The notes under the pieces: generated by a model | What the model saw: only the letters and a program-made list of their open reading frames with translations | Database searches by the model: none | Told to the model about the DNA's origin: nothing | Made by a program: the position numbers and the translations under genes | From: Escherichia coli | GTDB taxonomy: Bacteria; Pseudomonadota; Gammaproteobacteria; Enterobacterales; Enterobacteriaceae | Direction: 5' to 3' (one strand) | DNA length: 64,000 bases | NCBI RefSeq assembly: GCF_011045215.1 | Contig: NZ_CP049201.1 | Shown here: positions 3,054 to 56,537 of the stretch, one piece after another | Layout: each line of letters starts with the position of its first letter | How positions within the stretch are numbered: position 1 is the first letter of the stretch

Positions 3054-3201
3054 ATTACTTCCCGTTATGTGGTTAGAGCGAATAAATTATGGTCAACTTA
3101 CCGCAATAGCCCTTTAAAGTACCATTTTCGCGCCGTCTGCGAAATGGCATCCACGCGCATTGTTGATGATTTAAGGGCTAAATTCGGAAAATCAACCAGC
3201 G

Positions 3202-4789: not shown

Positions 4790-7465
4790 TTACTTCAACA
4801 TATTACGAATGACATAATGCAAAATGCCGTCGTTCTGGTAGTAGGTCAACTCCGTCGCGGTGTCGATACGACAACGGCAGGGTACGACTTCCTGGCTACC
4901 ATCCGCGCGCGTAAGCGTCACCGGAACCGTCGCGCCGGGTTGTAGGTTTTGCAGATCGCCAATATCAATCTTCTCTTCCCCGGTTAGCCCTAACGTTTTA
5001 CGCGTTACGCCTTGCGGAAATTCCAGCGGCAGGATGCCCATGCCAATTAAATTCGAACGGTGAATTCGTTCAAACGATTCGGCAATCACCACACGAATAC
5101 CAAGCAGACGCGGACCTTTTGCCGCCCAGTCACGGCTGGAGCCTGATCCATACTCTTTCCCGGCAATCACCGCCAGCGGCGTTTGCTCCTGCTTATAGCG
5201 CATCGCAGCATCATAAATAGAGACTACGTCGCTGTCAGGTAAATGCCGCGTCATCCCCCCTTCAACGCCAGGCACCATTTCATTACGGATGCGAATATTG
5301 GCGAAGGTGCCGCGCATCATCACTTCATGGTTACCACGCCGCGAACCGTAGGAGTTAAAGTCTTTTCGCTCAACACCCCGACCTTGTAGGTATCGACCCG
5401 CTGGGCTGTCGGGCTTAATACTGCCCGCCGGAGAGATATGGTCAGTGGTGACTGAATCCCCCAGCATTGCGAGGATCCGCGCACCGTGAATATCTTCCAC
5501 AGGTGCTGGTGTTGCCTGCATTTCATCAAAGAAAGGCGATAAACGAATATAGGTTGAATCCTCCTGCCATCCGTAGGTATCGGATCGTGCGACGTTAATT
5601 TCTTTCCACTCTGCAGTGCCTTCAAAGACTTCTGCGTACTCTTTGCGGAACATTTCTGTGGAGACTTGTTCTACCGCACGGGCAATTTCTTGTGCCGATG
5701 GCCAGATATCTTTCAGATATATTGGATCGCCTTTACGATCATGACCAATAGGCTCAGAAGCCAGGTTGATATTCATATTTCCCGCCAGCGCATAAGCAAC
5801 CACCAGCGGCGGCGAGGCCAACCAGTTGGTTTTAACCAGCGGATGGATACGGCCTTCAAAGTTACGGTTGCCGGACAGCACTGCACCGACGGTTAAATCG
5901 CCTTTTTTGATTGCCGTTTCGATAGGATCGGGCAGCGGCCCAGAGTTACCAATACAGGTGGTACAACCGTATCCCACAAGGTTAAACCCCAGTTCGTCGA
6001 GATACGGTGTAAGTTTCGCTTTTGCCAGATAATCAGAAACGACTTTCGAACCCGGTGCCAGCGACGCTTTGACCCACGGTTGCCGCTTGAGGCCCAGAGT
6101 TACGGCTTTTTTCGCCAGCAAGCCTGCGGCCATCAGCACACTTGGGTTAGAGGTGTTGGTGCACGAGGTTATCGCAGCAATGACCACAGCGCCATCAGGT
6201 AACTGATACTGATGTCCGTTCATAACATAATCGACCGGCTGGCGATCTTTATGCGTGGCATTCACTTCCAGTTCGTTACTGGCGGCAAATGCTTTTGGTA
6301 CATCGGGCAGTGCAACGCGATCCTGTGGGCGTTTAGGCCCTGCCAGGCTCGCTTCAACGTCATTCATATCCAGTTCTAACGTACTGGTAAAAATCGGTTC
6401 ATCGCCCGGGTTACGCCACATGCCCTGCGCTTTGGCATATTTTTCGACCAACTCGACCTGATCTTCGCTGCGCCCGCTTAAACGCATGTAATCGAGGGTT
6501 ACAGCATCGATTGGGAAGAAGCCACAGGTGGCACCATATTCTGGCGACATATTGGCAATGGTGGCGCGATCCGCCAACGGTAGTGAATCCAGACCATCAC
6601 CATAAAATTCGACGAATTTCCCCACCACGCCATGTTTGCGCAGCATTTGGGTAACAGTGAGAACCAGGTCTGTAGCGGTAATACCTTCACGTAATTTTCC
6701 GGTAAGTTTAAAGCCCACTACGTCCGGGATAAGCATGGAAACCGGCTGGCCTAACATTGCGGCTTCTGCTTCGATGCCACCCACGCCCCACCCCAACACG
6801 CCAAGGCCGTTTATCATAGTGGTGTGCGAGTCAGTACCAACGAGTGTATCCGGATAAGCAATCCATTCACCGTCCTGCAATTCGCTCCACACTGCTTTGC
6901 CGAGATATTCGAGGTTAACCTGATGGCAAATGCCTGTGCCTGGCGGCACGACGCTAAACCGACTGAACGCCTGCTTTCCCCATTTCAGGAACACATAACG
7001 TTCGTGGTTGCGCTCCATTTCCAGGCGTACGTTTTCTTCAAATGCCTCATCATCACCAAAACGATCGACGGTCACCGAGTGGTCAATGACCAGGTCGACC
7101 GGTGAGAGCGGGTTAACCTTTGCAGTATCGCCGCCGAGGCGTTTAACCGCTTCGCGCATTGCAGCGAGATCAACAACGGCAGGTACGCCGGTAAAGTCCT
7201 GCATCAGCACCCTTGCCGGGCGGTAGGCAATTTCACGGTCAGCATGGGCATTTTTCAGCCATCCCGCCAGCGCGTGGATATCCTCTTCGGTAACCGAGTT
7301 ACCATCCTGCCAGCGCAGCAGGTTTTCGAGCAAAACTTTGAGTGACTTGGGTAGACGGGTGATATCGCCCAGTGATTTGGCAGCAAGCGGCAGGCTGTAG
7401 TAGTGGTAAGTTTTATCTTTGGCCTGCAACGTGTCCTTACTGGCTTCTCGTAGGGTTGACGACAT
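4790..7465 (-). CDS. acnA: Aconitate hydratase A
   Basis: 891-aa ORF with aconitase-family motifs; matches recalled AcnA. Confidence 0.97.
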
Positions 7466-7837
7466 AGCTCCTCCTTAATGACAGGGTTGCGAAGCCCTGA
7501 TTCTCTTCAGGGTGAATATTAAAGATAACACAAACATCGCGTAACGATTTGATAACAACCCAAATTGATAAAAGAGGAGAAACCTTGTGGCAAAGCAAAT
7601 GACAACCCCGCCGCAGCGGGGTCAAGGATCAGTGAGTAATGATCCAGAGGAGTTCGGCCCAGAAGAGCATCGACAGAGAAAACGCGCCCATCCAGGACCA
7701 ATATTTCATATTTGTGTTGATCATAGGCTACACCCTTAACGGTTATTACTTTGTGTTGAGATAACTCAACCTGTTATTGCTGCGGTGTATTAAAAGCCCT
7801 GTAATTCATTAAAAATGGGTAATAAGAATGATGATAA

Positions 7838-20214: not shown

Positions 20215-20259
20215 ATGAAAGCAATTTTCGTACTGAAAGCTTGGTGGCGCACTTCCTGA
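20215..20259 (+). CDS. trpL: trp leader peptide (14 aa, tandem Trp codons)
   Basis: ATG AAA GCA ATT TTC GTA CTG AAA GCT TGG TGG CGC ACT TCC TGA; reads [14 protein letters not shown]. Confidence 0.9.
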   Translation: [14 protein letters not shown]

Positions 20260-20301
20260 AACGGGCAGTGTATTCACCATGCGTAAAGCAATCAGATACC
20301 C

Positions 20302-20329
20302 AGCCCGCCTAATGAGCGGGCTTTTTTTT
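20302..20329 (+). terminator. trp attenuator (3:4 terminator hairpin)
   Basis: AGCCCGCCTAATGAGCGGGCT followed by TTTTTTTT, between trpL and trpE. Confidence 0.9.
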
Positions 20330-28764: not shown

Positions 28765-28948
28765 TTAAAAAATGAAATAAGACATTGTATCTGAAAGAAA
28801 AAACAGGATTTTGAGGCGCTTTTTTATACCGTTTCTCCGTGTTTTTAACTGCCTGATTTTATTGAAATCTTTTTTAGTTTTGCAGAAAGGATTTTTTGCT
28901 CGATCGTTTTAATTTTATACATTCCTGATAACGGAAATTTTTTTGCCG

Positions 28949-29061
28949 TTGACAGTTTTTGTTCTCCGGGGCTATATTCCTCACACAACCGCAAAATCGG
29001 TTGTCGGGATTGGCGTCCCGGATGTTTACGGAGCGATATAAGACGCGCCCGCGTCTTTTTT
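28949..29061 (+). ncRNA. Candidate small RNA: sigma70-like promoter, about 75-nt structured transcript, intrinsic terminator
   Basis: TTGACA 28949-28954, 18-bp spacer, TATATT 28973-28978; two internal hairpins (CAACCG..CGGTTG, CGGGA..TCCCG); terminator AGACGCG-CCC-GCGTCT + TTTTT at 29041-29061. Confidence 0.3.
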
Positions 29062-29224
29062 CATATCGTTTGCACAGTCACATTCGCGATTTATGGCGGG
29101 CTGTGTGGGGGAGCCGAAAGGCTCGCCGGTTTCCGTACCCGGTTACGCCAACCCTGCACAGTTCGCCACCAGTTCGATTGGCGTCGTCGGTGGCGATAAT
29201 TTCCAAATGTACGGAGTTATCGTT

Positions 29225-29788
29225 ATGACCACTCAGATTTCTGTCGAAACTCTTTCCCCGATTACACACAATCAAATTCCCGTTATCACTACCGAGTTGC
29301 TGGCGCAGCTTTATGGCACGGACTCAGATAACATCAAAAAGAATTATTCGCGCAACGCAGATCGCTTTTGTGAAGGTAAGCACTTTTACAAGGTGATTGG
29401 CGATGAACTAAAGAATTTGCGGGTGACTTTAAGTCACTCACAAAATCCCATCTCTCCCAAAACTCGCTCCCTCATCCTCTGGACAGAACGCGGCGCAGCC
29501 CGCCATGCCAAAATGCTCGAAACCGATCAGGCGTGGGAAGTGTTCGAAAAACTGGAAGACTGTTATTTCAGCCATAAACAACCACCAGCAACACAAAACT
29601 CCCCCACCCCAAATGATGGATGCGCATTACTGATCCACTTCGATAAACACGGGCAGGTCGAGTTCACGGAAAAAGTCCCCGCCGATGCGATGGTATGCAC
29701 TCTGGAACGGTTTAAATTTTATCTGGAGCAACATGGGTGGATCGTTGCCCGTAAAGAACAATTGGTAGAAAGGTTGATGCGGTTTTAA
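29225..29788 (+). CDS. ORF6N-domain (KilA-N-like) protein
   Basis: ORF track 29093..29788; start taken at MTTQISVETLSPITHNQIPVITTELLAQLYG (ATG 29225); motif typical of ORF6N/antirepressor-like family. Confidence 0.6.
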   Translation: MTTQISVETLSPITHNQIPVITTELLAQLYGTDSDNIKKNYSRNADRFCEGKHFYKVIGDELKNLRVTLSHSQNPISPKTRSLILWTERGAARHAKMLETDQAWEVFEKLEDCYFSHKQPPATQNSPTPNDGCALLIHFDKHGQVEFTEKVPADAMVCTLERFKFYLEQHGWIVARKEQLVERLMRF

Positions 29789-29794
29789 TGAATG

Positions 29795-29828
29795 CAAAAC
29801 CCCGGATGATCACCGGGGTTGATTTTAT
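29795..29828. terminator. Bidirectional terminator between ORF6N gene and tail fibre assembly gene
   Basis: AACCCCGG-ATGATCA-CCGGGGTT hairpin flanked by A/T runs. Confidence 0.5.
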
Positions 29829-30403
29829 CGAGGATGATTGCCGCTAATCGTCATCTCTCTGATTGAGAGTAAATCATCCAAGTTATTCAGCTCTTGCTTC
29901 ATCTCCCGCTGGCGGCGATAAATCTCGTCATTGCGATCGACCTGCGCCTGAACCATTGCAGTAAGCAGCTCATCCAGTTGTTGCATTGACAACTTTACCT
30001 GCTGATTTTCCGCATCGCGCCATACCATGGTTTTCCGTGCCGTGACTGATTTTGCTGATATCACCACCGGGTAAAGACGGGCCATCGAATCCGGTCCCCC
30101 GTTCCAGCTATGACCGTTCCATTCAAAAATGAATGGCTGCGCCTCCTGCTCTGTACGCCATGCTTCAATTTCCCGGCGTTTGGCTGCTTTTGCTGCTTCC
30201 AGCATCTCTGGCGTGACGGTGAACGGCGTTATTTCTCCCCACTTGCCGCTTTGCAGTTCCTGCCAGACTCGCTGCCCTGTCTCTGCTGTATCCGTGGCAG
30301 TTGCCGTATACGGAACCGGTTCATCCATGCCATCAAACAACACCCCGCAGTCAATCGCGCCATTTTCAAGATAACGCGCATTTTCGATGCGTTTTATTTC
30401 CAT
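29825..30403 (-). CDS. Putative tail fibre assembly chaperone (Tfa-like)
   Basis: ORF track 29825..30436, start at MEIKRIENARYLENG (ATG 30403); immediately downstream of a fibre gene. Confidence 0.55.
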   Translation of the reverse strand: MEIKRIENARYLENGAIDCGVLFDGMDEPVPYTATATDTAETGQRVWQELQSGKWGEITPFTVTPEMLEAAKAAKRREIEAWRTEQEAQPFIFEWNGHSWNGGPDSMARLYPVVISAKSVTARKTMVWRDAENQQVKLSMQQLDELLTAMVQAQVDRNDEIYRRQREMKQELNNLDDLLSIREMTISGNHPR

Positions 30404-30410
30404 AAAACAC

Positions 30411-31835
30411 CTACGCAATACGTATGAACAAACCAATCATGACACTGGCTGACCCGGCAGACCCGAGTTCATCGCCTGACAGTGCACGATATGACCCCGG
30501 CATACCACCACCAGAACCCCGCACATATACGGAAACGCTGCCGTTATATCCAACCCCGCTACCGGTCGTGCCGTAACACATAAATTCAACCGCACTCAGG
30601 CGTGACCCCGGATAACTGTAACCGCGCTTTATCCGGCGGTCGGTGTCTGCGTCTCCCTTACCGTTATAAGCCGCCAGTACAAGACTGCCTGCACCGTACC
30701 AGCCGTCCGTGGTACCGGGAGCAATACCGGACAGAAGAGAGATAATGTCCTGTGAGGTAATCTTCAGATTTTCCCAGCCAGTCAGATAACCATTACCTGT
30801 TGTCCAGTAGCGGCTGTAATAAACATCGCCATTGATACCGTAGAAAATAATGGCCTTTGGTGTATATCGCGGTTCCGGTGGATTATTGCGTGCCTCAACC
30901 CACCGGATGCTGACCACCCCGTTAAACAACACACCTCCGGATATGATTTTACTGCCACCCTCAACAAAATATTCACCCGGCGTCGCATTCCTTACCCATG
31001 CCAGAAAATCATCCTCTGTGTTAAAACGGATGCGTTCTGCGGGCAGAAAAATATGCCCAAAACCAAATGCGCCAGGTGTCGCCAGACGGCCTTCAGTCCG
31101 GTCGCGAATGTCGCTCTGTGGCGTCATTGTGGCTGCGCTTTTCAGTCCAAGATTATCACGGGATTCCTGCTGAGCCTCTTCACCTTCATCAGCCAGCTCT
31201 GATAAACGATTCGCCGTTTTCAGTGTCGCAGATAACGCGGTGTCAATATCCTCCCTGACATGCTCTGCATCAGATGCAGCCTGTTTAGCAGCTTCAGCGT
31301 CCTTTTTTACCTCCTCGGCGGCATTCTCAACCTGTGAGACCAGATTTTCGGCCTGTTGTTTACCCTCCGCAACCGCGTCGGCGTTCTGCTGAACACCTTC
31401 CGCCAGTTTTTTTACCTCTTCTTTTTCCCGAGCGGCAGCGTCTGCATGTTGCCCTGCCTGTCGTTCGCTTTCTGTTGCAGTTTCCGCGCTCTGCTGCGCC
31501 TGCGCCACCAGTTCTTCGAACCGCTTAACAACATCCGGCTTCAGGTCGCCTTCATCGAGGGCAGTCAGAAAGTCGTTCAGCGTGCCAGGCTTTGAGTCGT
31601 CGTAAACCGAAATATCACCGACACAGTATTCCCTTTCAATACACGACCGAAGATAAACGTCATATTTTCCGGTCTGAGCTTCAAAAGCATATTCTCCTGC
31701 CGGACCTGTCACCACTGTCGCCACCGTTCTCATGACCACTGCGGATGTATTCTGTCTGGCTTTCAGAATAATATGGTATCCGGACATGGGGAGTCCCGCG
31801 CCATCCGTCAGCACACCCGAAATTAATACAGACAT
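30411..31835 (-). CDS. Side tail fibre (Stf-like): prophage tail-fibre N-terminal domain, Ala/Glu-rich coiled region, distinct C-terminal domain
   Basis: N-terminus ISGVLTDGAGLPMSGYHIILKARQNTS...SVYDDSKPGTLNDFL resembles recalled StfR/StfE N-domain. Confidence 0.7.
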   Translation of the reverse strand: MSVLISGVLTDGAGLPMSGYHIILKARQNTSAVVMRTVATVVTGPAGEYAFEAQTGKYDVYLRSCIEREYCVGDISVYDDSKPGTLNDFLTALDEGDLKPDVVKRFEELVAQAQQSAETATESERQAGQHADAAAREKEEVKKLAEGVQQNADAVAEGKQQAENLVSQVENAAEEVKKDAEAAKQAASDAEHVREDIDTALSATLKTANRLSELADEGEEAQQESRDNLGLKSAATMTPQSDIRDRTEGRLATPGAFGFGHIFLPAERIRFNTEDDFLAWVRNATPGEYFVEGGSKIISGGVLFNGVVSIRWVEARNNPPEPRYTPKAIIFYGINGDVYYSRYWTTGNGYLTGWENLKITSQDIISLLSGIAPGTTDGWYGAGSLVLAAYNGKGDADTDRRIKRGYSYPGSRLSAVEFMCYGTTGSGVGYNGSVSVYVRGSGGGMPGSYRALSGDELGSAGSASVMIGLFIRIA

Positions 31836-43310: not shown

Positions 43311-43895
43311 TCACTCAGCTCTCTGTTGCCGTAACTTCTCCGGCACGTTTCCGGTTGTTTCCATCAGATAATCTTCCAGAATGCGGGGCAGGTTATCGGC
43401 AGTTTTAGCGCACGCATTACAGGCGCGTGCTGTTTCCCTCCTCAGGCCATCGATCATTGCCGGAGTCATCGCGGGAAACTGCCTTTGCATCGTAAGGGGC
43501 AAGCTATTCATGATGGTTGAAATCTGTTGCGCCAGTTTAGACAGTGCATACATACAAAAGCCGGTATCTATAACCTCTCCTGTCTCCCTGGCGTTCTTCA
43601 GTTCCTGCCCGTCAGCCTGTGCTTTAGTGAGACGGTATCGTTCGTACTCTGTTGTGCCTGGCTGTAAATCTGATTCACCAACGGCACGTAAATCATCAAG
43701 CTCACTGCGGAGTTTTTCTTTTTCGATCTCCTTCTCCCTCTGTACATACCATTCGATCACCTGTGAAGAGTCGAAAGTCACCTCCATACCTTTTCCGCCA
43801 CCAGATACATGGGGGAGCCCTTGCATCTGCCAACGTTCAATTGTGCGCGGATCAACACCGAAAATCTCTGCCAGTCTCTTTTTGTTAACATTCAT
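43311..43895 (-). CDS. Terminase small subunit, lambda Nu1-like (element copy)
   Basis: N-terminus MNVNKKRLAEIFGVDPRTIERWQMQGLPHVSGGGKGMEV resembles recalled lambda Nu1 winged HTH; C-terminal half similar to the prophage TerS at 62051..62560. Confidence 0.8.
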   Translation of the reverse strand: MNVNKKRLAEIFGVDPRTIERWQMQGLPHVSGGGKGMEVTFDSSQVIEWYVQREKEIEKEKLRSELDDLRAVGESDLQPGTTEYERYRLTKAQADGQELKNARETGEVIDTGFCMYALSKLAQQISTIMNSLPLTMQRQFPAMTPAMIDGLRRETARACNACAKTADNLPRILEDYLMETTGNVPEKLRQQRAE

Positions 43896-44039
43896 TTATC
43901 AAATCCTCATCAAAAACCACCTCCGACATGAAACGCCTGAAAAACGGGATTTTCCGGCGTTATGGTGTCGTATGTTTATTATAGTTAATTTAAATAAAAA
44001 CATAATGTTACATGCAAGAAGTACCGACATGCTTTTTCC

Positions 44040-44115
44040 CTGAAAAATTTTCATAAATAGTGAAAATCTGCGCGTCTGCCGCCCCGCGGTGTTTCTGATT
44101 CTGGAAAGGACCCGT
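44040..44115. other. Lambda-like cos site of the element
   Basis: GAAAAATTTTCATAAATAG ... GCGCGTCTGCCGCCCCGCGG ... GGAAAGGACCCG; reverse complement resembles the lambda cos junction (CGCTATTTATGAAAATTTTCC, GGGCGGCGACCT, GGGTCCTTTCC); about 185 bp upstream of terS. Confidence 0.6.
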
Positions 44116-44194
44116 GAAAATTGGGGCGATCACCACCGTTCCGGATACAAAAAAAATCGCGAGACCTTGCCAGCCTCGCGAACGTTCATTTCAG

Positions 44195-44620
44195 TTACTT
44201 AACAGACAGCAACAGCTTTTCATCTTCGGTCAGTCCGGCGTTGCCATCACCGGCTGCTGGCCCAACACATTTCGGGCTGTGCTTTTCCATGTACGCTTCA
44301 AACAGAAAAGCCGTTTTCTTTTCCTGCATCATTGCCTGGGCATCCACGGCAGCCAGTAACGTTTGTGCATAGGTTACTGTCATTACTTCAGAACCACACT
44401 CAATCAGCTTACTGGTGAACTCAGGGTATTTTGATGCCAGCGGTAACGCCTTGATACCCTCTATGCGCTGTTTATCACTCTCAGCCTTTGCAGTAAGCAC
44501 CGTTCGGGCTTCTGTCAGTGATGCGCCATTATTTGCGAGATTTTCCGCAAGCGTCGGGTATTTCTGCGCCTCAGGCAGTGCCATGATCAATGCTCTGGTT
44601 GAATTTGCTTTCTCAGTCAT
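44195..44620 (-). CDS. Hypothetical head-module protein (possible scaffold)
   Basis: 141-aa ORF between decoration-like gene and cos; no recognised motif. Confidence 0.45.
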   Translation of the reverse strand: MTEKANSTRALIMALPEAQKYPTLAENLANNGASLTEARTVLTAKAESDKQRIEGIKALPLASKYPEFTSKLIECGSEVMTVTYAQTLLAAVDAQAMMQEKKTAFLFEAYMEKHSPKCVGPAAGDGNAGLTEDEKLLLSVK

Positions 44621-44634
44621 AAATCACCACAAAA

Positions 44635-44964
44635 TTATTGCCCTAAAGGCTGCACGGAAATACCGGAACCAACAAAAGACGACACTTTTTTCTCGAACGT
44701 GTCCGCTGTATCAGGCCAGTTAATTTCATCGATATTAAAAACCCCGCACTTATAAACCTGTGCGCGGTTTTTTGTGGCCGTGTTAATGTCCGATATGGTC
44801 AGATACACCGCCTTACCGGGTGTACCGTCCCACTCAACCATCAGGCCCGCGCCGTTCTGCATCAGCGGAGTTCTCGCTTTAATTTCTCCGGCACTGGCAA
44901 AACAGGCCAGCGTGCTGACCAGTTCCTGCGTGCCGGAAAGGAATTGCGTGTAAGGTGTTGGCAT
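44635..44964 (-). CDS. Head decoration protein homologue (lambda gpD-like, element copy)
   Basis: RTPLM..VEWDGTPGKAV...YKCGVF..INWPD...FVGSGISV parallels the gpD pattern TPLM..VAWDG...YKSGTF...WP..AF.GTAIS. Confidence 0.65.
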   Translation of the reverse strand: MPTPYTQFLSGTQELVSTLACFASAGEIKARTPLMQNGAGLMVEWDGTPGKAVYLTISDINTATKNRAQVYKCGVFNIDEINWPDTADTFEKKVSSFVGSGISVQPLGQ

Positions 44965-44974
44965 ACGATCCCCT

Positions 44975-46030
44975 TTATTTCACTTCGACGGTAACAAAGC
45001 GACCAATATCCACGGGTACTGGCTGCGGGGCGCTGTGCGTCTGCACGTATTCAATCGCCGGATCGCCCGGTACGATATAATTTTTCGGGTAGTACATCCC
45101 CTCAGAAAATCCCTCGCGTGCCGCGTCCTGATCCATGATGGCACCATAAGCAACAAGGCCTTTATTTTCGGTATTGCCGAAAACCATCATGTTTTGTTTC
45201 AGGAAATATTGCTGCTGCCCGTTTTCGTCGTCATAACGACCGGAATAAACCACGATCGCCACATCACCGAGATACCCCTTGAAGCTGACAACGCCGCCCA
45301 AATCTTTTAGCGCAAGTTCAAGTGACGAGTTTGAACCGCGACGCGTGTCCATTAGTTCGCGGAATCGACGGAACGAGCGCAAAATACGCCAGGCTTCGCC
45401 ACCCATGACGATAATATTTACCGTACCTTCGGAAAAATCAGCGTAAGCCTCAATGTCGCTTATCGGATCAAACGTTTCGGCATCCTGTTTTGACCATTCT
45501 TTCCCGCCAGCCTGCGTAATATGATTGGTTTCGGGTAATCCCCAGTCAATTTCATAACGCTCAATGCCTTCGCCCTCAATAACGTTACGGCCTGTTGTGA
45601 TGGCATTGACCGCCAGCCATTCAACACGCGCTTTGATGGCAGCAAGCTGTTTTTTCTGGCTGTCGTGAACCATTTTTACGCGGCGTAGTGCCGGGGAAGA
45701 CTGACCATTGCCGATCTGTTCTCCAGGCATGCGCATGATTGTTTTGGTGGGATCAATAACGTGTTTGGGCTTCATATAACCCGGCGTGAACGTGTTCGTT
45801 GTGAAACCTTTGTCACGCATAACCTGGCTGCCTGACATTGGAGAACAAAACGGACTCATGACCACGTTTTCAATATCCAGCGTATCAAGTGCAATATCTC
45901 TGGTGCTGAAAGTAGCGACGTTCGGAAAGAACAACGTAGTAAAGAGTGGATTAAATTTAAATTCCGGCACATCTTCGCGCCCGATATTTTTCAGTAGCGT
46001 TGGTGTGCTTACCAGTTGCGGCGCTGTCAT
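44975..46030 (-). CDS. Major capsid protein homologue (lambda gpE-like, element copy)
   Basis: 351-aa ORF; TPGYMKPKH, NHITQAGGKEWSKQDAETFDP, KELMDTRRGSNSSLELALKDLGGVVSFKGY align with the prophage gpE at 55439..56467. Confidence 0.8.
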   Translation of the reverse strand: MTAPQLVSTPTLLKNIGREDVPEFKFNPLFTTLFFPNVATFSTRDIALDTLDIENVVMSPFCSPMSGSQVMRDKGFTTNTFTPGYMKPKHVIDPTKTIMRMPGEQIGNGQSSPALRRVKMVHDSQKKQLAAIKARVEWLAVNAITTGRNVIEGEGIERYEIDWGLPETNHITQAGGKEWSKQDAETFDPISDIEAYADFSEGTVNIIVMGGEAWRILRSFRRFRELMDTRRGSNSSLELALKDLGGVVSFKGYLGDVAIVVYSGRYDDENGQQQYFLKQNMMVFGNTENKGLVAYGAIMDQDAAREGFSEGMYYPKNYIVPGDPAIEYVQTHSAPQPVPVDIGRFVTVEVK

Positions 46031-46266
46031 TACTCACCCCCATGAGGCTGATTCATACCAAGCGCAGCGCGTAAATGGCTGCGTACCATCCAGCCGACTG
46101 ACGGCTTCACCAGGCACAACGGATCAAGGCCGATTTTTTTTCCTGCCTCTGCGTTCTCCTCAAAGCGCGCATTAAGTGCGGCGATAATATCGGGGCTGAT
46201 GTACACGGATACACCGCCCGGCTTCTGTGTTCCCATAAATGAGATTCCTCTTTGACTAAAAAACAA
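46030..46266 (-). CDS. Hypothetical protein upstream of capsid homologue
   Basis: 78-aa ORF, start uncertain; no recognised motif. Confidence 0.35.
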   Translation of the reverse strand: MFFSQRGISFMGTQKPGGVSVYISPDIIAALNARFEENAEAGKKIGLDPLCLVKPSVGWMVRSHLRAALGMNQPHGGE

Positions 46267-46457
46267 ACATAACGAAAAGTCATGTCATGATTTTAATTAT
46301 CGTTGCACTTTTTGCAATATAATTGACTATTGTTGCGAATAATGAAATCATTATGTCGTGGTTTTAATCCTTGTACCACAGAGTTGTTTAGCATTAATCA
46401 CGTTAGCGGCGTGAAATCCCCCGGAACCTCATCCCGGGGGATTTTTTTGCGCACAAA

Positions 46458-46482
46458 AAAGCCGGGAAAAATCCCGGCTTCT
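46458..46482 (-). terminator. Terminator after element ssb
   Basis: AGCCGGGA..TCCCGGCT hairpin followed by TTTTTTGTG on the minus strand, just after ssb stop. Confidence 0.5.
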
Positions 46483-46494
46483 GTCACTCGTTGC

Positions 46495-46917
46495 TTAAAA
46501 CGGTATTTCATCCCCGTACGGATCATCATTTCCCGCCTGTTGTTTTGCTCTGCTCAGTGCATCAGTAGCCTGCCCCTGTTGGCCTTTTTTGCCGCCCGGT
46601 CGCGCCGTTCTGGCACTGATTACACTGTCTGCGATAACCTGCCAGCTCTGCCGCGTTTCGCCGTTCTGGCCTGTCCACTGGCTTACCTGCATGTTACCCG
46701 CCACGCTCACCAGTTCGCCTTTGCGGTGTTTTGCCAGTGCGTCGGCCTGTCTGCCAAACGCCAGGACGGATAACCACATCGTCGCCGTTCCGTCATCTGC
46801 CTGGCTGCACGGCAGGGGAACCGCCATACTCGCCATCGCCATTTGTGTTCCCTTGCTGGTGGTCTTTAACTGCGGGTCAGCCACCAGCCGCCCGTAAGCT
46901 GCTATCTGTGCTGTCAT
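46495..46917 (-). CDS. Single-stranded DNA-binding protein (SSB-like) with acidic C-terminal tip
   Basis: 140-aa ORF; C-terminus ...NDDPYGDEIPF resembles the SSB tail ...DFDDDIPF. Confidence 0.7.
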   Translation of the reverse strand: MTAQIAAYGRLVADPQLKTTSKGTQMAMASMAVPLPCSQADDGTATMWLSVLAFGRQADALAKHRKGELVSVAGNMQVSQWTGQNGETRQSWQVIADSVISARTARPGGKKGQQGQATDALSRAKQQAGNDDPYGDEIPF

Positions 46918-47165
46918 GCTGTCTGCTCTCCGGTTTTAACGTTGATGGTTGTCACCTGTTCCGCTTCGGCAATCTCCCGCTCTGTCAGCGTGGCAAAGTT
47001 TGCCGCCGCTGTGGTCATGAATGCGCTTATCAGTTCGGGATGTGCTTTTGCGTATCCTTCTCCGGCATGGCGGTCTATTGTTCTGATTGCCACCTTTAAG
47101 GCGTGCTCTGTCATGTCTAACGCTTTATATTTTGGCGCTGTCTTATCTCTGGTTTTTTTGGTCAT
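46914..47165 (-). CDS. Hypothetical protein
   Basis: 83-aa ORF, ATGA overlap with ssb start. Confidence 0.45.
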   Translation of the reverse strand: MTKKTRDKTAPKYKALDMTEHALKVAIRTIDRHAGEGYAKAHPELISAFMTTAAANFATLTEREIAEAEQVTTINVKTGEQTA

Positions 47166-47370
47166 TTCTCACTATTCCCCACTTTTTCGCCTCACTTTTT
47201 AAGCTCCCAACATGATTTCCAACCTTGTTTTTTTGTGATTCTAATATGTTGTTTTTCAATGTGTTTTTTATTCCTCACTTTTGAGCCTATATACAGGTTG
47301 AAAAGTGAGGGGCGCGGTTGCTTTTTGTTCAGTTTCTGCTATCCCCTCACTTTTGTGCCTCACTTTTTAC
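47165..47370. repeat. Iteron array with AT-rich core (candidate replication origin of the element)
   Basis: CTCACTTTT at 47191, 47274, 47346, 47361 and inverted AAAAGTGAGG at 47301, flanking an AT-rich stretch (47225-47275), directly downstream of the helicase gene. Confidence 0.55.
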
Positions 47371-48782
47371 AGTGGGCGCACATCATCACCGTCAATAGTG
47401 ATAACGCCGTCTCTTTCCAGCTTGTACAGCCAGCGCCGAAAGTTTTTCATCTCATACCCCAGCTTTTTCATATCATCACGCAATAACGGGATAGTGCATT
47501 TATCGCCGCGCTGTGTGCGTGAACGGATACAGCCCCATAGCGCGGCGTGATTCTCCGTCTTGTTTCCGGCCTCCTCAATGCGCTCCAGTTCAACAGGTGG
47601 GCGCGGCTTATCCACTACCACCAGCGACGTGATTAACTCCTTGTCAGCGTCGATAAAAAGCTCCACCACGCGTAAATCGTATGCGGCCTCTTTCAGTTCC
47701 TCTGCGTCCTTCATTTTGGTGCAGGAGATAACCAGGGCTTCACTGTCTGCACCTTCCCGGCGAATACGGTATTCAGCGTCCAGAGATGCACGAAATGCAC
47801 TGGAACCACGCGCCCCCTTTGTTTCATCCTTGCCGGAATGGTGAACCACCAGTACCGTGGCCCCTGTGCGTCGTTTCAGTTCGTCACATCCACGGATAAA
47901 CGCCCCCATATCCCGCGCGTCATTTTCATCATTACCGCCAAAACACCGCGCCAGCGTATCCAGAATAATCATGCGTACCGGTTTACCCGTTTCCCTTTCA
48001 ACCTGGCGGGAAGCGATGACCATTTCATCAATATCAAACTGTGCTGCCGGAAAAATCGGGCGGTTTACCAGGTACAGATTTTTCACCCGTTCATCATTAA
48101 CGATTTCCCATGCTTTGATACGACGAGGGACACCAATGCCACCTTCACCGACGACATACATCACCGAACCATGCGCCACCCTGCGGCCTCCCCAGTGGCG
48201 ACCCGTGGCAACATGACACGCCCAGGAACACGCGAGGAATGATTTATAGGAACCGCTCGCGCCGTATGTGCTGCACAACGAATTAGCCGGAATCACGCCC
48301 TTAACGACATAATCAAGCTGTGTGTCGTACCCTGCAGATCCAATACTCATTGGTAGCGTGGTTTTTCGCTGGTCGTTTTTTTCTTCCTCCGGTATCTCTC
48401 CGGACCGTCTTTTCTGGCGCTCTCGTTCCAGATATTCGCGCCACCCCTCCCGCTTCTGGCTGTGCATTCCCTCAGGGTAATAATTCGCATCCCGTACACC
48501 TGCCGCTGCCAGCTTTTGCCCGATGGCATTAATATTTGACGGCTTGATGTGGCCTGCCTTGTACAGCCGGACACAATAGCGACCATCGTCGATAATTTTC
48601 AGGTCAGCCAGTTCGTCAAGATGGCTGTCTCCAAGCCATACAGGCGGAACATTGTCGCCAGCAAGTCGCCCGTCCTGCTCCTGCCATTGTTTCGCGTGCG
48701 CCCAGGCATCACTACCCGCAAAAATAATGACTTCGGTCATTTTGTCGTGCGGCTGTTTTTTTAAGTTCGGTGCCAGTTTCAT
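47367..48782 (-). CDS. Replication protein, RepA/DnaB-like P-loop helicase
   Basis: 471-aa ORF with Walker A GASGSYKS and RecA-like core; C-terminal winged-helix-like region. Confidence 0.7.
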   Translation of the reverse strand: MKLAPNLKKQPHDKMTEVIIFAGSDAWAHAKQWQEQDGRLAGDNVPPVWLGDSHLDELADLKIIDDGRYCVRLYKAGHIKPSNINAIGQKLAAAGVRDANYYPEGMHSQKREGWREYLERERQKRRSGEIPEEEKNDQRKTTLPMSIGSAGYDTQLDYVVKGVIPANSLCSTYGASGSYKSFLACSWACHVATGRHWGGRRVAHGSVMYVVGEGGIGVPRRIKAWEIVNDERVKNLYLVNRPIFPAAQFDIDEMVIASRQVERETGKPVRMIILDTLARCFGGNDENDARDMGAFIRGCDELKRRTGATVLVVHHSGKDETKGARGSSAFRASLDAEYRIRREGADSEALVISCTKMKDAEELKEAAYDLRVVELFIDADKELITSLVVVDKPRPPVELERIEEAGNKTENHAALWGCIRSRTQRGDKCTIPLLRDDMKKLGYEMKNFRRWLYKLERDGVITIDGDDVRPL

Positions 48783-49078
48783 TTTTTACCCCTGAATGCG
48801 TTAATCATGTTTTTCATTTTCTGAATGTTCGCCCGTGCCTTTGCGTTGCTGGTGGGCTGTTTGCATGGCGTGGCCTGTATCAGTGAAAAATCACGCCGGA
48901 ACTGATAAACAGGCATCACGCAGTCATAGCCGTACCCATCACGGCGGTAAGTAACGCACCGTCCCGCCACGCTTTTAATCGTTACCGTGCCGCCGTAGTT
49001 ATCCCGGAAAATATCGCCGGGGCGGATTTCAGGCCGAGCGGGGCCGCTGGCAGTAAAGCCAGAAATTTTCTGTTTCAT
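48779..49078 (-). CDS. Hypothetical protein
   Basis: 99-aa ORF, ATGA overlap with helicase start. Confidence 0.4.
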   Translation of the reverse strand: MKQKISGFTASGPARPEIRPGDIFRDNYGGTVTIKSVAGRCVTYRRDGYGYDCVMPVYQFRRDFSLIQATPCKQPTSNAKARANIQKMKNMINAFRGKK

Positions 49079-49286
49079 GGTTTTTATTCCTCTGCGCGGG
49101 TCTTGTTGTGTATTTCCATAACCGCGTTTAATTCATCAATAACCGGGGTTAACAGAGTGCTGAAAGCAGAAAATAAATCCCCCCCCCTGTTCGGCATGAA
49201 CTTCGGTTAATTTAATTAATACCGCTTTCATTTCCAGTGCCCGGTTTAATGCATTCTCAGAATGAATAAGAACATCGAAAGGGATT

Positions 49287-49520
49287 TTATCCATGGCTTA
49301 CATCCTCCGGGAATTTTCTTCTGTAACGCGCCTCTGCAACATATTCCGCATAGTCCGACGCAATATTGAGAATCTCCACACCCTCTGACCTGTAGCCACT
49401 GGTACTGATAAGAAAAAATGCGGCTTTCATCATGTCGGCAACGCATAACAACGCATCGCCTGTATGTTCCGGTGCGCCATCAAATTCCTGTTTCAGGGCA
49501 TTAAAACGATCATCACGCAT
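49287..49520 (-). CDS. Hypothetical protein (may be the 3' part of one gene frameshifted at a C9 tract)
   Basis: 77-aa ORF; begins inside poly-C/G tract 49523-49531. Confidence 0.3.
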   Translation of the reverse strand: MRDDRFNALKQEFDGAPEHTGDALLCVADMMKAAFFLISTSGYRSEGVEILNIASDYAEYVAEARYRRKFPEDVSHG

Positions 49521-49753
49521 AACCCCCCCCCATTTTCACAATCAGTAATCAGGATGGCTTTAGCCTCATTCAGTGCCATATCAGCACTAAATTGCATAAC
49601 AGCCAGTGAGTGAGGAACGAAATCCCCGGCATATTCTGTTTCGCTGGTGGCGTGCTTATGTGCCCTGTCCGCGATAACAGAAATATCAATCAGCGCGTGC
49701 ATCAGCGTTTTGATGGCTTCGGCGGCTGCGTCCTGACGGGTGTTATTGCACAT
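49493..49753 (-). CDS. Hypothetical protein (may be the 5' part of one gene frameshifted at a C9 tract)
   Basis: 86-aa ORF ending just after poly-C/G tract. Confidence 0.3.
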   Translation of the reverse strand: MCNNTRQDAAAEAIKTLMHALIDISVIADRAHKHATSETEYAGDFVPHSLAVMQFSADMALNEAKAILITDCENGGGLCVMIVLMP

Positions 49754-49949
49754 GGCGCACCTCCTGACGAATACGGGCGGCGAATACCATCACGCAGCCA
49801 TCAGGAGATTGCTGACGCGCTTCCTGTTCGTTGGTGGCCTCAATGGTAATCACGCGCGGTTGTGCCGTGCTCAGGGCGATAAAACGCCAGATGTATTTAT
49901 TCAGGTTGTGCGAGTCCCGCCCTTGCGGGTGTGTGGTATGATTTAACAT
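49743..49949 (-). CDS. Hypothetical small protein, divergent from the RHH gene
   Basis: Start taken at MLNHTTHPQ (ATG 49949, RBS GAGGTA); long upstream extension in ORF track rejected. Confidence 0.4.
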   Translation of the reverse strand: MLNHTTHPQGRDSHNLNKYIWRFIALSTAQPRVITIEATNEQEARQQSPDGCVMVFAARIRQEVRHVQ

Positions 49950-50043
49950 AGCTACCTCGATAATCTTGCTATCGTTGGTGGTTAGACGCCCTGCATGTGT
50001 ACCACCACTGCGGGGCGTTGCGTTTTTTGATGTGCACGTGTTA

Positions 50044-50088
50044 AGGTGTACACCTAACGAACCAAAACATAACGCCATAGGTGTACAC
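50044..50088. promoter_or_regulatory. Two palindromic operator-like sites GTGTACAC in a divergent promoter region
   Basis: AGGTGTACAC at 50044-50053 and 50079-50088, second abutting the RHH start codon. Confidence 0.5.
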
Positions 50089-50283
50089 ATGTCAACAGTT
50101 ATTAAGCGCGATAAAAAACAAAAAGGCACAGGAAAGGCCCCACCATTCCATATGCGTATAGTCCCTGAATTGAAGGAGCAGTTTGATAACGAAGCCAGTA
50201 ACGATGGAGTAAGTCTTGCCAACTGGCTTAAAGAGTTAGGGCGCAAAGAACTGCTACGGCGCGGAATTGAACCAAAGGGATAA
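50089..50283 (+). CDS. Ribbon-helix-helix (Arc/CopG-like) DNA-binding protein
   Basis: ORF track 49966..50283; start taken at MSTVIKRDKKQKG (ATG 50089); APPFHMRIVPELKEQFDNEASNDGVSLANWLKELGRK fits the Arc-type RHH pattern. Confidence 0.6.
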   Translation: MSTVIKRDKKQKGTGKAPPFHMRIVPELKEQFDNEASNDGVSLANWLKELGRKELLRRGIEPKG

Positions 50284-50340
50284 CTATCACTAATGTCGCA
50301 ACCAGAGGAGTTGCGACTCCGAAGATTACATAGGAAATTA

Positions 50341-50823
50341 ATGATTATGGGATTCGTCATTTTCATTGCGATCGTAATTTTATCCATTTACGTTCTTACC
50401 AAATTATTTATTTCAGAAAATTCACACGACAAAATTAGAGCCGAGGCATCCAGAAGAATTGCACAAGAAGAGGCCGAACGGGCTAAGTTGTATGAAGAGA
50501 GAAAGGAATCATCTGATAATCCTGTTAATAAACAAAAACGAATAACAACACACGAAGATCATTTTTATATGGATATTCATGGTGGTCACAAATATATATG
50601 TGTTGATGCTAAGTTAGTTTTTGAATATGCAAATTTAAAACACAACTATTTTCTTCACGCCTCTCACTATTTCCCTGAGTTAGAGTATGTTTATGGAAAA
50701 AACGAACATGGGAAAATAGTTAGAGTAGATTTGTACGATAAAAAAATTCAAGCTATTAACCCCGATACTGGCGAAAAAATACCTGGTGTGAGACGTTATC
50801 TACGACAGCACAAGATAAAATAG
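50341..50823 (+). CDS. AT-rich membrane-anchored protein of unknown function
   Basis: ORF track 50293..50823; start taken at MIMGFVIFIAIVILSIYVL (ATG 50341, RBS AGGAAA); single N-terminal TM helix; markedly lower GC than neighbours. Confidence 0.5.
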   Translation: MIMGFVIFIAIVILSIYVLTKLFISENSHDKIRAEASRRIAQEEAERAKLYEERKESSDNPVNKQKRITTHEDHFYMDIHGGHKYICVDAKLVFEYANLKHNYFLHASHYFPELEYVYGKNEHGKIVRVDLYDKKIQAINPDTGEKIPGVRRYLRQHKIK

Positions 50824-51238
50824 CCCACCGGAATTTTTTTCCGGTTACGCTTTGCCCACCAGCCGCAAATGTGGCATTGTTGGCTATGCTCATGCGTTGG
50901 GGATAACGCGCAATTAGTGTTGAAGGGCCACCGTAGCGGGTGGCCTTTGTTTTGCCTGTTATCCGGCAATTGTGGCGCTTCGCCACACGGTTGATATAAT
51001 CCTCCTGCACAGATTCATTTTTTGCGCAGCAGGTTAATTGTTCGCAAGGGCGCTCCGGCAACTGGGCGCTTTTTGTTTTTACCCACCAGCACAATAAAAA
51101 TCTTCATTTTCCATTTTTGCAAAATTTCATGCTTTCCGGACGACTGGCCATATGTCATTTTTTAGCAGAAGATTTTGCCTTGCTGGTGGGTAGCTTCCCG
51201 GTTAACACGATGTACCGTATAATCAGCACCGCACGCGG

Positions 51239-51820
51239 TTACTGAATACGCTCACCAAAGTAAAACTCAGGCTGATATTCACGTATCAGCCTTTTTTCTT
51301 CTTCCTCCAGCTCACGCTTTTTGCGCTTACATGCCTGTAGTTCCCTCCCCTTCTCGCTGGCACTTATCTGGTATTGCTCTTTGCGACGGGAAAAATCCTG
51401 TAATGCGCCCCACGGGATACCATAAGCCCCCGTTTTTCTGATACCCGGTATCACATTTCTGAATACCCAGTTACTGAAACGATGGGCGAACGTGCCAGGA
51501 GTAGCAGCTTTTCGACTTCTGGCAATCAGCTTGTAAAAACCAGATTCAGAAACGACGCTATGATTTGGATTTCCGCGAATACCGTAAGTTAAAGTTACGG
51601 TATTACTTTCATCATCATCCAGAGCTTGCAACGCCATGCGTGAATTAGTCAGTTCCAGCGCAGCGCAGACATCCTTTGCAACAAACCACGGATCGCCGTT
51701 CAGATACACCACGCGAACGTTCACACTATCAAAGCGCAGAACGACCAGATCACGAATATCACAGAATTTTTTCACTGGACGTGCGTCACCCTTGCCAGTC
51801 ACGGCAATATTTTTATTCAT
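51239..51820 (-). CDS. Bro-N domain protein (antirepressor-like)
   Basis: DIRDLVVLRFDSVNVRVVYLNGDPWFVAKDVCAALEL...GFYKLI..S....A..F..WV fits Bro-N. Confidence 0.7.
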   Translation of the reverse strand: MNKNIAVTGKGDARPVKKFCDIRDLVVLRFDSVNVRVVYLNGDPWFVAKDVCAALELTNSRMALQALDDDESNTVTLTYGIRGNPNHSVVSESGFYKLIARSRKAATPGTFAHRFSNWVFRNVIPGIRKTGAYGIPWGALQDFSRRKEQYQISASEKGRELQACKRKKRELEEEEKRLIREYQPEFYFGERIQ

Positions 51821-51870
51821 CGCTTTTTACCTCACATACAAAAAACCCCGCATTGCGCGGGGTATATCAA

Positions 51871-52080
51871 TCATTGACGATATTCATTAGCTTGTTTTCG
51901 TTGTCTTTCCAGCCACGATGCAACATCATCACGATGCCATGCGTTGCGTCGCCCAATCTTAAAGGGGCGTGGAAATTTATTTTTTTCATCATTCATGAAA
52001 GCGTAAAATGCACTCATTGCACCGTAGCGAAGCTCTGCCATCACGTCTTTGGTAAATAGAATATTGCCGTTAGTGCTCAT
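51871..52080 (-). CDS. AlpA-family regulator / excisionase-like protein
   Basis: 69-aa ORF immediately downstream of integrase, HTH-like core. Confidence 0.65.
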   Translation of the reverse strand: MSTNGNILFTKDVMAELRYGAMSAFYAFMNDEKNKFPRPFKIGRRNAWHRDDVASWLERQRKQANEYRQ

Positions 52081-52086
52081 ATTGCC

Positions 52087-53319
52087 TCACATATTCACTA
52101 CTTTTAGCCCCTGATGACCACCAGAACGACGGATAATTCCCTTTCTGGCATCATCAACAAAATCACCAATCCATTGCATCATGATCTTACGTTGCTCAAA
52201 ATATTTTGAGCGATTATAAATATCACGAATAGCATCGCCGCTTTTATGGGCTAATGCTGCCTCAATAACATCTGGGTTAAACCCTTCTTCGTTGAGTAAC
52301 GTACTCCACATAGCCCGGAATCCGTGGGCAGTTGCAATACCATAAAATTGTCCATCTTTGAAACACTTATGACGCAACACGCTTGATATAGCTTTCCCCG
52401 GATTCTTTGGAGAAAAAAATATATAGCTACCACATTTTATTTTATTCATTTCATTTAAAATATCCACGGCTTGCCGTGAAAGCGGAACTACGTGTTCACG
52501 TCCACACTTCATTCTTTCAGGGGGAATTGTCCAGATACAATTTTCTAAATCAATTTCCTCCCATTTTGCCTCCCTTGCTTCACATGGTCGTACCATAGTG
52601 AAAATCTGGAACAAAAGAGAGCATCTTATAGAGATATTACTTGTAGTATCCCACCAGTTCAAAAATTCTGATAACAGTTCAACTGGTAATGCCTTTAATG
52701 GGGTATGTTTTTTTGTTGCAAATGCATTTCTTATTGTTGATAGCGGGTTATTTTTAATTACTCCAGAGTTAACACAGTAATTCATTATTTCATTAATTTT
52801 TGAAATAATTTTATCCAATACAGAATTACGATCAGAAAATTGATTAAGCAATGGTATGACCACAGGCGCGGTCATATCATGTATGTACACATTTCCAAAT
52901 ACAGGGATTATATGTCTGTTCAATAACTCTTCTATTGTCTGTAAAGTCGACAGTCGCAAATCACCTTTTTTCTTAAAATTAAACCATTCAATTGCAATAG
53001 CACCAAACGTCTGTAAGTGCTTTCTTTTAGCCTCGAGTCGTTTTTCTGCCCGGTATGATAACGGATCTATATCCCGTGCCAACAATCTGCGCAGATTATC
53101 GCGTTCTTCTCTGGCTTCAACCAGCGTGAAATCGGGGTATCGCCCTATAGTGTATGTTTGCCGCTTCTTCGTAAAAGGTTGTACATAACGAAAACGCCAC
53201 GATTTACTACCGGCTTTTGACACATAAAGCAAAAGCCCAAACCCATCATATAGAGCGTAATCTTTCTCTCGTGGCCTGGCGCTTTTTACCTCTGATGCAG
53301 TAAGAGGCTTCACCGACAT
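52087..53319 (-). CDS. Tyrosine recombinase, P4-type integrase
   Basis: ORF track 52087..53418; start taken at MSVKPLTASEVKSARPREKDYALYDGFGLLLYVSKAGSKSWRFRY (ATG 53319); C-terminal catalytic region with HGFR and Y. Confidence 0.85.
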   Translation of the reverse strand: MSVKPLTASEVKSARPREKDYALYDGFGLLLYVSKAGSKSWRFRYVQPFTKKRQTYTIGRYPDFTLVEAREERDNLRRLLARDIDPLSYRAEKRLEAKRKHLQTFGAIAIEWFNFKKKGDLRLSTLQTIEELLNRHIIPVFGNVYIHDMTAPVVIPLLNQFSDRNSVLDKIISKINEIMNYCVNSGVIKNNPLSTIRNAFATKKHTPLKALPVELLSEFLNWWDTTSNISIRCSLLFQIFTMVRPCEAREAKWEEIDLENCIWTIPPERMKCGREHVVPLSRQAVDILNEMNKIKCGSYIFFSPKNPGKAISSVLRHKCFKDGQFYGIATAHGFRAMWSTLLNEEGFNPDVIEAALAHKSGDAIRDIYNRSKYFEQRKIMMQWIGDFVDDARKGIIRRSGGHQGLKVVNM

Positions 53320-53492
53320 ACAAGCACTCCAATACAAATTTTTTCTAGTCCATGCGCTGGTTCCTTTTGCCAGAATACTGGCGATAAAAAAGCGAAAAAC
53401 AAGGAACAATGCACACAATGAAAAAACCGCAACTTATTGAATAAGAAGAAAAACAAAAAGAAACGGTAACGAAAGATAATGATTGCATAGTC

Positions 53493-56467: not shown

Positions 56468-56537
56468 AATTGACTTTCCTTTAAAAACACAAACGAACCG
56501 CATCACGACCCGTTTTTTTCAGTTAATCACTTCACCA

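Follow-up and report, generated by a model that had tools for sequence, protein, structure and literature searches.

What does an antirepressor-type gene do at the very end of a prophage, where it reads against the tail genes next to it? The question is raised by a gene for a protein of 187 amino acids (aa) with an ORF6N domain, located at 29225–29788 on the + strand (ATG 29225, TAA 29786–29788) of a stretch of Escherichia coli DNA that spans 64,000 nucleotides (nt) of one strand and is referred to here as the window (NCBI RefSeq assembly GCF_011045215.1, contig NZ_CP049201.1). The gene had been described, from the DNA alone, as an ORF6N/KilA-N-like terminal moron with the typical position of a lysogenic-conversion or antirepressor-type gene. 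We find that the locus, a phage regulatory switch, belongs to an already known kind of antirepressor operon that many E. coli genomes contain. Its gene is very probably the effector of an immI-type operon, of the kind represented by c4-icd-ant in phage P1 and isrK-orf45-anrP in the prophage Gifsy-1, because three Rfam families stand ahead of it in the P1 order, their pairing sites co-vary, one of these sites (b2) lies on the Shine-Dalgarno (SD) sequence, and the protein matches both AnrP and the family phrog_2379.

The whole window was scanned against Rfam, with the family gathering scores as threshold. In the 275 base pairs (bp) ahead of the gene, three matches exceeded the gathering score, all on the + strand: c4-a1b1 (RF03163, 28972–29024, 48.6 bits versus a gathering score of 46.7), isrK (RF01394, 28985–29061, 75.2 bits versus 50) and the C4 antisense RNA (RF01695, 29089–29173, 77.6 bits versus 45). 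Thus, this interval is not mere spacer. The original prediction had missed these regulatory RNAs, which define both the identity of the locus and its control. One other match, to fstAT on the − strand inside the gene, scored 21 bits against a gathering score of 72 (E = 0.58) and was dismissed as chance.

Transcription of the cassette is predicted to start from a sigma-70 promoter, TTGACA-18-TATATT, at 28949–28978 (+), which agrees with the consensus at 11 of 12 positions; its −35 TTGAC and most of its −10 are invariant in the 40 distinct leaders described below. Since the promoter ends at 28978 and the Rfam isrK model begins at 28985, the start is placed at about 28985. From there to 29063 (+) runs an IsrK-type short RNA with hairpin 1, a hairpin 2 that contains the site a1 (UUGGCGU, 29010–29016), the site b1 (UACGGAG, 29027–29033), and a terminator with its U-tract. 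A terminator scan located this terminator, or attenuator, as a hairpin with a T-run at 29040–29057 (+). A second hairpin (29798–29820, +) lies between the convergent ORF6N and DUF4376 genes; it has an 8-bp stem with 6 GC pairs and a T-run, and a folding energy of −14.4 kcal/mol (z = −2.5). Shuffled sequence would be expected to give 2.5 terminator-like sites; the scan returned 8. The two flanking terminators that had been claimed for the gene are therefore both present, but the upstream one is an internal IsrK-type attenuator: lying downstream of the gene's own promoter, it is inside the transcription unit and is not an insulator. With its own promoter and the terminator at 29798–29820, the gene is, on sequence evidence, a self-contained unit, as the original prediction had it.

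The C4 RNA at 29089–29173 (+) has a 17-bp outer stem, a hairpin 1, a hairpin 2 with the loop b′ and a single-stranded a′. Its minimum-free-energy fold is the Rfam structure (−45.9 kcal/mol, z = −4.63). Following the annotated P1 record, sites labelled a pair with the single-stranded ACGCCAA, and sites labelled b pair with the hairpin-2 loop. In the window, b′ is UUUCCGUAC (29130–29138, +) and a′ is ACGCCAA (29145–29151, +). Only 51 nt separate the end of C4 from ATG 29225, and both target sites fall within them on the + strand: a2 (UUGGCGU, 29178–29184), complementary to a′, and b2 (GUACGGAG, 29209–29216), complementary to the C4 hairpin-2 loop. The SD sequence GGAG (29213–29216), 8 nt ahead of the ATG, is contained in b2, and RNAduplex gives the b′–b2 pairing an energy of −10.4 kcal/mol, with b2 spanning −16 to −9 relative to the AUG. 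We also observed that, across 29162–29196, the 3′ strand of the C4 outer stem (UCGCCACC) can pair alternatively with GGUGGCGA just past a2, which would present a2 in a hairpin loop. The arms of this pairing appear, by eye in the alignment, to co-vary (GCC/GGC versus ACC/GGU), and the alternative may correspond to the structures A and B described for Gifsy-1.

Viral contigs were scanned with the window protein, giving 80 loci. Among the fetched loci with a BLAST match, the leader precedes the gene in 74 of 85, and in the remaining 11 the stored or matched sequence ends short of the leader. For the analysis of co-variation, 40 distinct homologous leaders were aligned. The C4 stems are 98.5–100% paired across these leaders, with many compensatory changes. 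The a′–a2 interaction comprises 8 pairs, paired in 100% of cells, of which 5 have changed on both sides; a′–a1 is likewise 100% paired, and 5 of its 8 pairs show changes on both sides. When the partner was moved by 1–3 columns as a control, pairing fell to 27–43% (34–43% for a′–a2). The terminator helix was 60% paired in the same count, which is not evidence against the terminator, because half of the leaders have a different, misaligned terminator sequence.

Because the b′ loop varies in length, its pairing was scored as duplex energy over 9 loop types. Cognate b′–b2 combinations averaged −9.8 kcal/mol and non-cognate ones −5.0 kcal/mol, and the corresponding means for b′–b1 were −8.9 and −4.1 kcal/mol. 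Each b′ loop paired best with its own b2 and b1, and strong off-diagonal values occurred only between near-identical loop types. Altogether there are 6 a′ types and 9 b′ loop types, seen in 15 combinations; the combination found in the window is common to the loci L001 and L084 only. The RNA elements thus stand in the window in the layout given above, and a′/a1/a2 and b′/b1/b2 co-vary three ways, which shows that C4 has been under selection to pair with the downstream and the leader sites alike.

The leader also bears on where the protein begins. Open reading frame (ORF) calling gave a 231-aa frame from ATG 29093 without a stop before 29225, since the two ATGs are in frame. We rejected this longer ORF as the gene: it overlaps C4, with ATG 29093 falling in the outer stem, and neither its frame nor its length is conserved in the 40 relatives, in which the ORF from the equivalent ATG is 14–64 codons long, lies in any one of the three frames with respect to the gene, and has its end at −92 to +108 nt from the gene start. 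The SD sequence and the ATG at 29225 are kept throughout. The true start is therefore 29225, and the in-frame extension from 29093 is most likely incidental. Translational coupling like that of orf45 in Gifsy-1 had been expected and was rejected as well, since it is not conserved among these leaders; an ATGA overlap of the orf45-anrP type occurs in only two, both Gifsy-type. The translated upstream ORF (29093–29224) weakly matches the Pfam family Phage_ASH (PF10554, 22.1 bits), and the equivalent ORF (6510–6647) of the relative E. coli SA53-3 is an "ash family protein" in RefSeq, its Phage_ASH score of 28.9 bits being above the Pfam threshold. These matches suggest that Phage_ASH in part models translated C4-type RNA genes.

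A domain search supported the ORF6N assignment of the original prediction. Residues 12–97 of the window protein match Pfam ORF6N (PF10543) over profile positions 3–86 of 86 with E = 1.2e-20 and 74 bits, against a cut-off of 27.8. A linker and a C-terminal domain of ∼65 aa (about 125–187) follow. The protein is equal in length to AnrP (STM2616) of Gifsy-1 and 54% identical to it over 186 of 187 aa (E = 7e-65), and it matches phrog_2379, "anti-repressor," over 187/187 residues (E = 3.9e-89). Its ORF6N part is 63% identical to Ant of the Shiga toxin (Stx) phage P27. The AlphaFold2 model has a mean predicted local distance difference test score of 79 and shows two domains joined by a low-confidence linker (residues 118–127). 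A PDB sequence search found no relative of the protein, and Foldseek comparison of the model with the PDB returned nothing at E ≤ 0.001. The label KilA-N-like is plausible; it is not established, because neither of these searches gave a significant match. A database search with the C-terminal 71 aa returned only 17 short fragments, in which the domain occurs under Rha as well as ORF6N labels. The C-terminal domains of ORF6N relatives fall into several related types ending GW[IFL]V...L.E[RK]L, and comparison of the proteins suggests that this small domain may be the phage-specific part.

The closest studied counterpart is Gifsy-1 (Hershko-Shalev et al. 2016, PMC4825925). There, the isrK promoter drives transcription of anrP, the mRNA of which is not translated; IsrK supplied in trans pairs with the orf45 region and thereby increases anrP translation more than 100-fold; and processing of the read-through transcript yields STnc1160, an RNA of ∼80 nt. 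The antQ operon is transcribed more strongly in response to AnrP, overexpression of AnrP induces Gifsy-1, and deletion of the isrK promoter abolishes induction in stationary phase (PMC4825925). The leader of the window locus is 77% identical in DNA to that of isrK-orf45-anrP of Salmonella Typhimurium and collinear with it. Both share the order promoter, IsrK hairpins, terminator, C4-like region (orf45/STnc1160), SD sequence and gene; both have the same a-type recognition sequence; and the proteins, of the same length, share the plan of ORF6N plus a small C-terminal domain. The two loci differ in their b type, the loop being UCGGUGAU in Gifsy-1 and UUUCCGUAC in the window, and the C-terminal domain of AnrP is only weakly similar to that of the window protein. 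Whereas orf45 ends in an ATGA overlap with anrP, the equivalent ORF of the window is fused in frame, which looks incidental. The Gifsy-1 cassette lies just downstream of antQ, whereas that of the window is at the prophage terminus beside the attachment (att) site, convergent with tail genes. No match to isrJ, which lies downstream in Gifsy-1, was found in the window at E ≤ 1.

The same layout is annotated in the P1 immI record: promoter P1c4, a1, b1, C4, a2 and b2, followed by icd and ant1. The same three Rfam models match P1, its isrK-model match (35 bits) being below gathering. In P1 also b2 is on a ribosome-binding site, just ahead of the icd start codon, and in immI of P1 and P7 an antisense RNA from the same transcript as its target controls the antirepressor. 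In P1, RNase P frees C4 from its precursor, and the RNA is active in trans. However, P1 has icd, translationally coupled to ant, between C4 and ant, with b2 covering the icd ribosome-binding site, whereas b2 of the window covers that of the antirepressor gene itself; no icd-like ORF is present between C4 and the gene in the window. Nor are the effectors related: P1 Ant1 is a 347-aa protein with a KilAC domain, as opposed to ORF6N, and BLASTP found no similarity between it and the window protein. P1 has a C1 operator at its promoter, and none was identified in the window. Modules annotated as antirepressor Ant in Stx-converting and other lambdoid phages (for example P27, 2851 and PA28) have the same leader architecture and are 72–78% identical to the window in DNA across the leader and the ORF6N domain; they differ in lying in the nin region or after Q and in their C-terminal domains, which in P27 is P22_AR_C. 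This DNA homology, together with the full-length AnrP and phrog_2379 matches, bears out the antirepressor-type character that had been proposed for the gene. A more distant parallel is P4 CI RNA (seqA-seqC), a small RNA processed from a leader transcript that pairs upstream and downstream of itself. Rfam places it with C4 in clan CL00128, and it has been cited as structurally homologous to IsrK (PMC4825925), but it acts by premature transcription termination of replication genes and not by translational repression of an antirepressor. The Gifsy-1 study likens IsrK to P4 seqA/CI and does not mention P1 c4 (PMC4825925); a 2025 review enters IsrK and c4 separately.

These comparisons suggest how the window cassette would work. 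The conserved promoter at 28949–28978, which is probably constitutive, would support transcription from near 28985 in the lysogen. Most transcripts would end at the terminator (29040–29063), yielding a 77-nt IsrK-type RNA that bears a1 and b1, and those that read through would carry C4, a2, b2 and the gene. C4, whether processed or still within the same transcript, would pair through a′ and b′ with a2 and b2 and, since b2 contains the SD sequence, would block translation of the gene in the lysogen. The short IsrK-type RNA could compete for C4, because it has the same two sites, and would thereby release translation. Once the balance tips, the protein would be made, counteract prophage repression and promote induction. 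By analogy with Gifsy-1 we infer the same regulatory outcome at the window locus, and the protein presumably acts by inactivating a repressor.

The surroundings of the cassette place it at the end of a prophage in ompW. On the host side, trpB-trpA, yciG, yciF and yciE extend up to 28579, and the window contains the ordinary host RNA elements STnc180 small RNA and trp operon leader, at 7595–7797 and 20236–20329. The segment 28642–28764 (−) encodes the last 41 codons of ompW (aa 172–212; 100% identity to K-12 by tblastn), a fragment annotated in relatives as partial OmpW. The alignment with K-12 ompW ends at 28764, with divergence from 28765 on, and from 28767 the window resembles a related phage (L041) that is integrated beside another host gene. 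Position 28765 therefore marks the left end of a prophage that has entered ompW. The interval from there to the cassette promoter (28765–28948) is an AT-rich terminal phage segment on the attP-arm side, unlike K-12 and homologous to L041 from 28767. No tRNA genes were found by a tRNA scan of the window, and hence the att site is not a tRNA gene. The remainder of ompW is not in the window, tblastn having given aa 172–212 alone; the prophage must therefore continue past the window, which includes neither its other end nor its immunity region.

The ORF6N gene lies ∼460 bp from the junction at 28764/28765 and converges on its nearest neighbor, a DUF4376 tail-fibre-assembly-like gene (29825–30436, −) with its stop at 29825. 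The next gene encodes a tail fibre with PF08400 (30411–31835, −); beyond it lie gpD-like and gpX-like genes and then tape measure, tube, sheath and baseplate genes. All large ORFs from 29825 to about 43 kb are on the − strand. Domain searches and the annotation of SA53-3 identify this block as a contractile-tail, P2-like module. The gene thus lies, as the original prediction stated, opposite to the tail operon and between the last tail gene and the att junction.

Farther along, a block of about 10 kb (43311–53418, −) separates the contractile-tail module from a second, lambda-like head module at 53.4–62.1 kb, which holds a major capsid gene (55439–56506) and genes for protease/scaffold, portal and large terminase. 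The block contains an integrase gene (52087–53418), a small helix-turn-helix gene, a Bro-N "anti-repressor" gene (51239–51820), a repressor-like gene (49743–50387), Icd-like and DUF4222 genes, a primase/RepA helicase gene (47367–48782), a single-stranded DNA-binding protein gene, a major capsid gene (44975–46030), a head decoration gene and a small terminase gene (43311–43895). It looks like a satellite of the P4 type or of the phage-inducible chromosomal island type inserted within the prophage, which would account for the two sets of capsid and decoration genes in the window. E. coli SA53-3 has the same layout.

The cassette is widespread. Of 5426 complete E. coli genomes, 1333 have all or part of it, at up to 5 places per genome, and 144 have it at full length; the ompW-cassette-DUF4376 arrangement occurs in 91 complete E. 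coli genomes. Its position at the prophage end is not, however, the typical one that had been claimed. In 58 of the about 70 viral loci (of the 80) with a callable upstream neighbor, the cassette is directly downstream of a Q antiterminator gene (PF06530 or DUF1133), in Stx phages it is in the nin region, and a terminal layout convergent with a DUF4376 or tail-fibre gene, as in the window, was seen in about 9 fetched loci. The anatomy is that of a moron, with its own promoter, its own terminator, and differing positions and content in related phages. The cassette is a self-contained unit that moves, a moron in anatomy with the predicted function of a phage regulatory switch. In the window copy, this module stands at the terminus of a contractile-tail (P2-like) phage and its b2 is predicted to act on the ribosome-binding site of the effector itself.

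A variant occurs in SA53-3 (L006), in which the slot equivalent to window positions 28949–29788 lies at 6361–7201 in the same prophage type at the same site. Its leader has C4, IsrK and a1b1 matches above or near the gathering score and the same a type as the window. The b type differs, the loop being UGUGAUG and b2, located between SD and ATG, CAUCACA. The gene that follows encodes a protein with an N-terminal domain of the Rha family (PF09669), whose C-terminal 71 aa are 93% identical to those of the window protein. Matched b′ and b2 sites are found here too, with another effector gene in the slot.

Two other copies deserve mention. The closest DNA match (99.4%) is a decayed copy in E. coli strain C5 (L001, 3060–5332), in which the ORF6N gene is frameshifted and is followed by two truncated DUF4376 fragments in opposite orientation and then by tRNA-Ser and hyaA, with no prophage. 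In the record of "Actinobacillus phage vB_Apl-pPE4" (GenBank PP818812, L004), the cassette at 2986–3848 is 84–91% identical in nucleotides to E. coli. This phage is recorded as infecting Actinobacillus pleuropneumoniae; the neighbors of the cassette, Hok/Gef and a DUF1133 Q-like gene, are those of a typical enterobacterial lambdoid phage, and the host assignment of the record looks doubtful.

Several points weigh against reading the gene as the effector of an immI-type operon. The proposed regulation at the window locus is taken from the Gifsy-1 homologue, and even for AnrP the reported effects are raised antQ-operon transcription and phage induction, not direct binding to a repressor (PMC4825925). 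The orf45-type translational coupling of Gifsy-1 is not conserved at the window locus. The repressor region of the prophage is outside the window, so no target can be named, and the satellite-like insertion means that the prophage may be defective. The N-terminal domain, finally, has a DNA-binding-type fold, and therefore the protein could act on DNA. In that case, it would be a transcription regulator like Rha or Roi that uses its winged-helix-like ORF6N domain to act directly on promoters of the phage or the host, an explanation that we consider unlikely. A stronger competitor, although we do not favor it, is that the module serves mainly in secondary immunity or heteroimmunity, with the resident C4 blocking the antirepressors of superinfecting phages of the same a/b type, so that the antirepressor would matter mostly on infection and not in induction of the resident prophage. 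The 15 a′/b′ combinations with strict three-way co-variation would fit diversifying selection for specificity, the wide distribution of the cassette in E. coli prophages, with up to 5 places per genome, agrees with it, and c4 has a role in the heteroimmunity of P1 and P7 (PMC12197685). Immunity of this kind, however, complements antirepressor control instead of excluding it, and the loss of spontaneous stationary-phase induction on deletion of the Gifsy-1 isrK promoter (PMC4825925) argues for a role in the resident prophage.

The lysogenic conversion named in the original prediction, by which a cargo gene expressed from the prophage would benefit the host, found no such footing. A self-contained unit with promoter and terminator at a prophage end would suit cargo, as would the several positions of the module in different phages and the typical cargo genes that are its downstream neighbors elsewhere. 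But translation is built to be off by default, with b2 on the SD sequence; the homologue AnrP induces its prophage, and the AntQ pathway that is switched on is toxic to the cell; and Pfam and phrog searches of the window protein found no signal peptide, toxin, defence or metabolic domain. As nothing points to a host-directed function, we regard conversion as very improbable. Hardly more credible is the idea that the locus is an inert relic, left behind in ompW as an older prophage decayed. The strain C5 copy, frameshifted among its truncated DUF4376 fragments, shows the kind of decay this supposes, but the window ORF is intact and of AnrP length, its promoter, RNAs, SD sequence and terminator are intact too, and the segment from 28767 belongs to the phage genome, since it is shared with L041 at another site. 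The antirepressor operon therefore remains our preferred explanation.

The comparison with Gifsy-1 and P1 also permits a broader and more tentative proposal. The Rfam matches and the co-variation indicate that what was called "orf45" in Gifsy-1 is a C4 RNA and that the a1/b1 sites reside in IsrK. It is conceivable, though on balance we would not bet on the whole, that IsrK/orf45 of Gifsy-1 is the P1 c4/immI device with a decoy leader RNA and that the C-terminal domain of the effector sets its target. In the first part of this proposal, the short leader RNA with a1 and b1 may be a dedicated decoy for the C4 antisense RNA, and the two recognition elements may together act as a combinatorial code of specificity among enterobacterial prophages, in which at least 6 × 9 types exist and 15 combinations have been seen. 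In the second part, the conserved C-terminal domain of ∼70 aa may set the target while the N-terminal ORF6N and Rha domains are interchangeable, as both occur with the same C-terminal domain (93%), leader and slot.

These findings bear on how such loci are annotated and understood. A gene annotated only as "ORF6N domain-containing protein" can, where it lies at a prophage end, be read as an antirepressor switch under RNA control, and the small "ash family" or hypothetical ORFs that precede such genes are most likely translations of C4 RNA genes. The cassette or parts of it are present in about a quarter of complete E. coli genomes, Stx phages included. Cross-activation or cross-silencing between co-resident or incoming phages may depend on their a/b type, which bears on prophage induction and on the spread of toxin phages.
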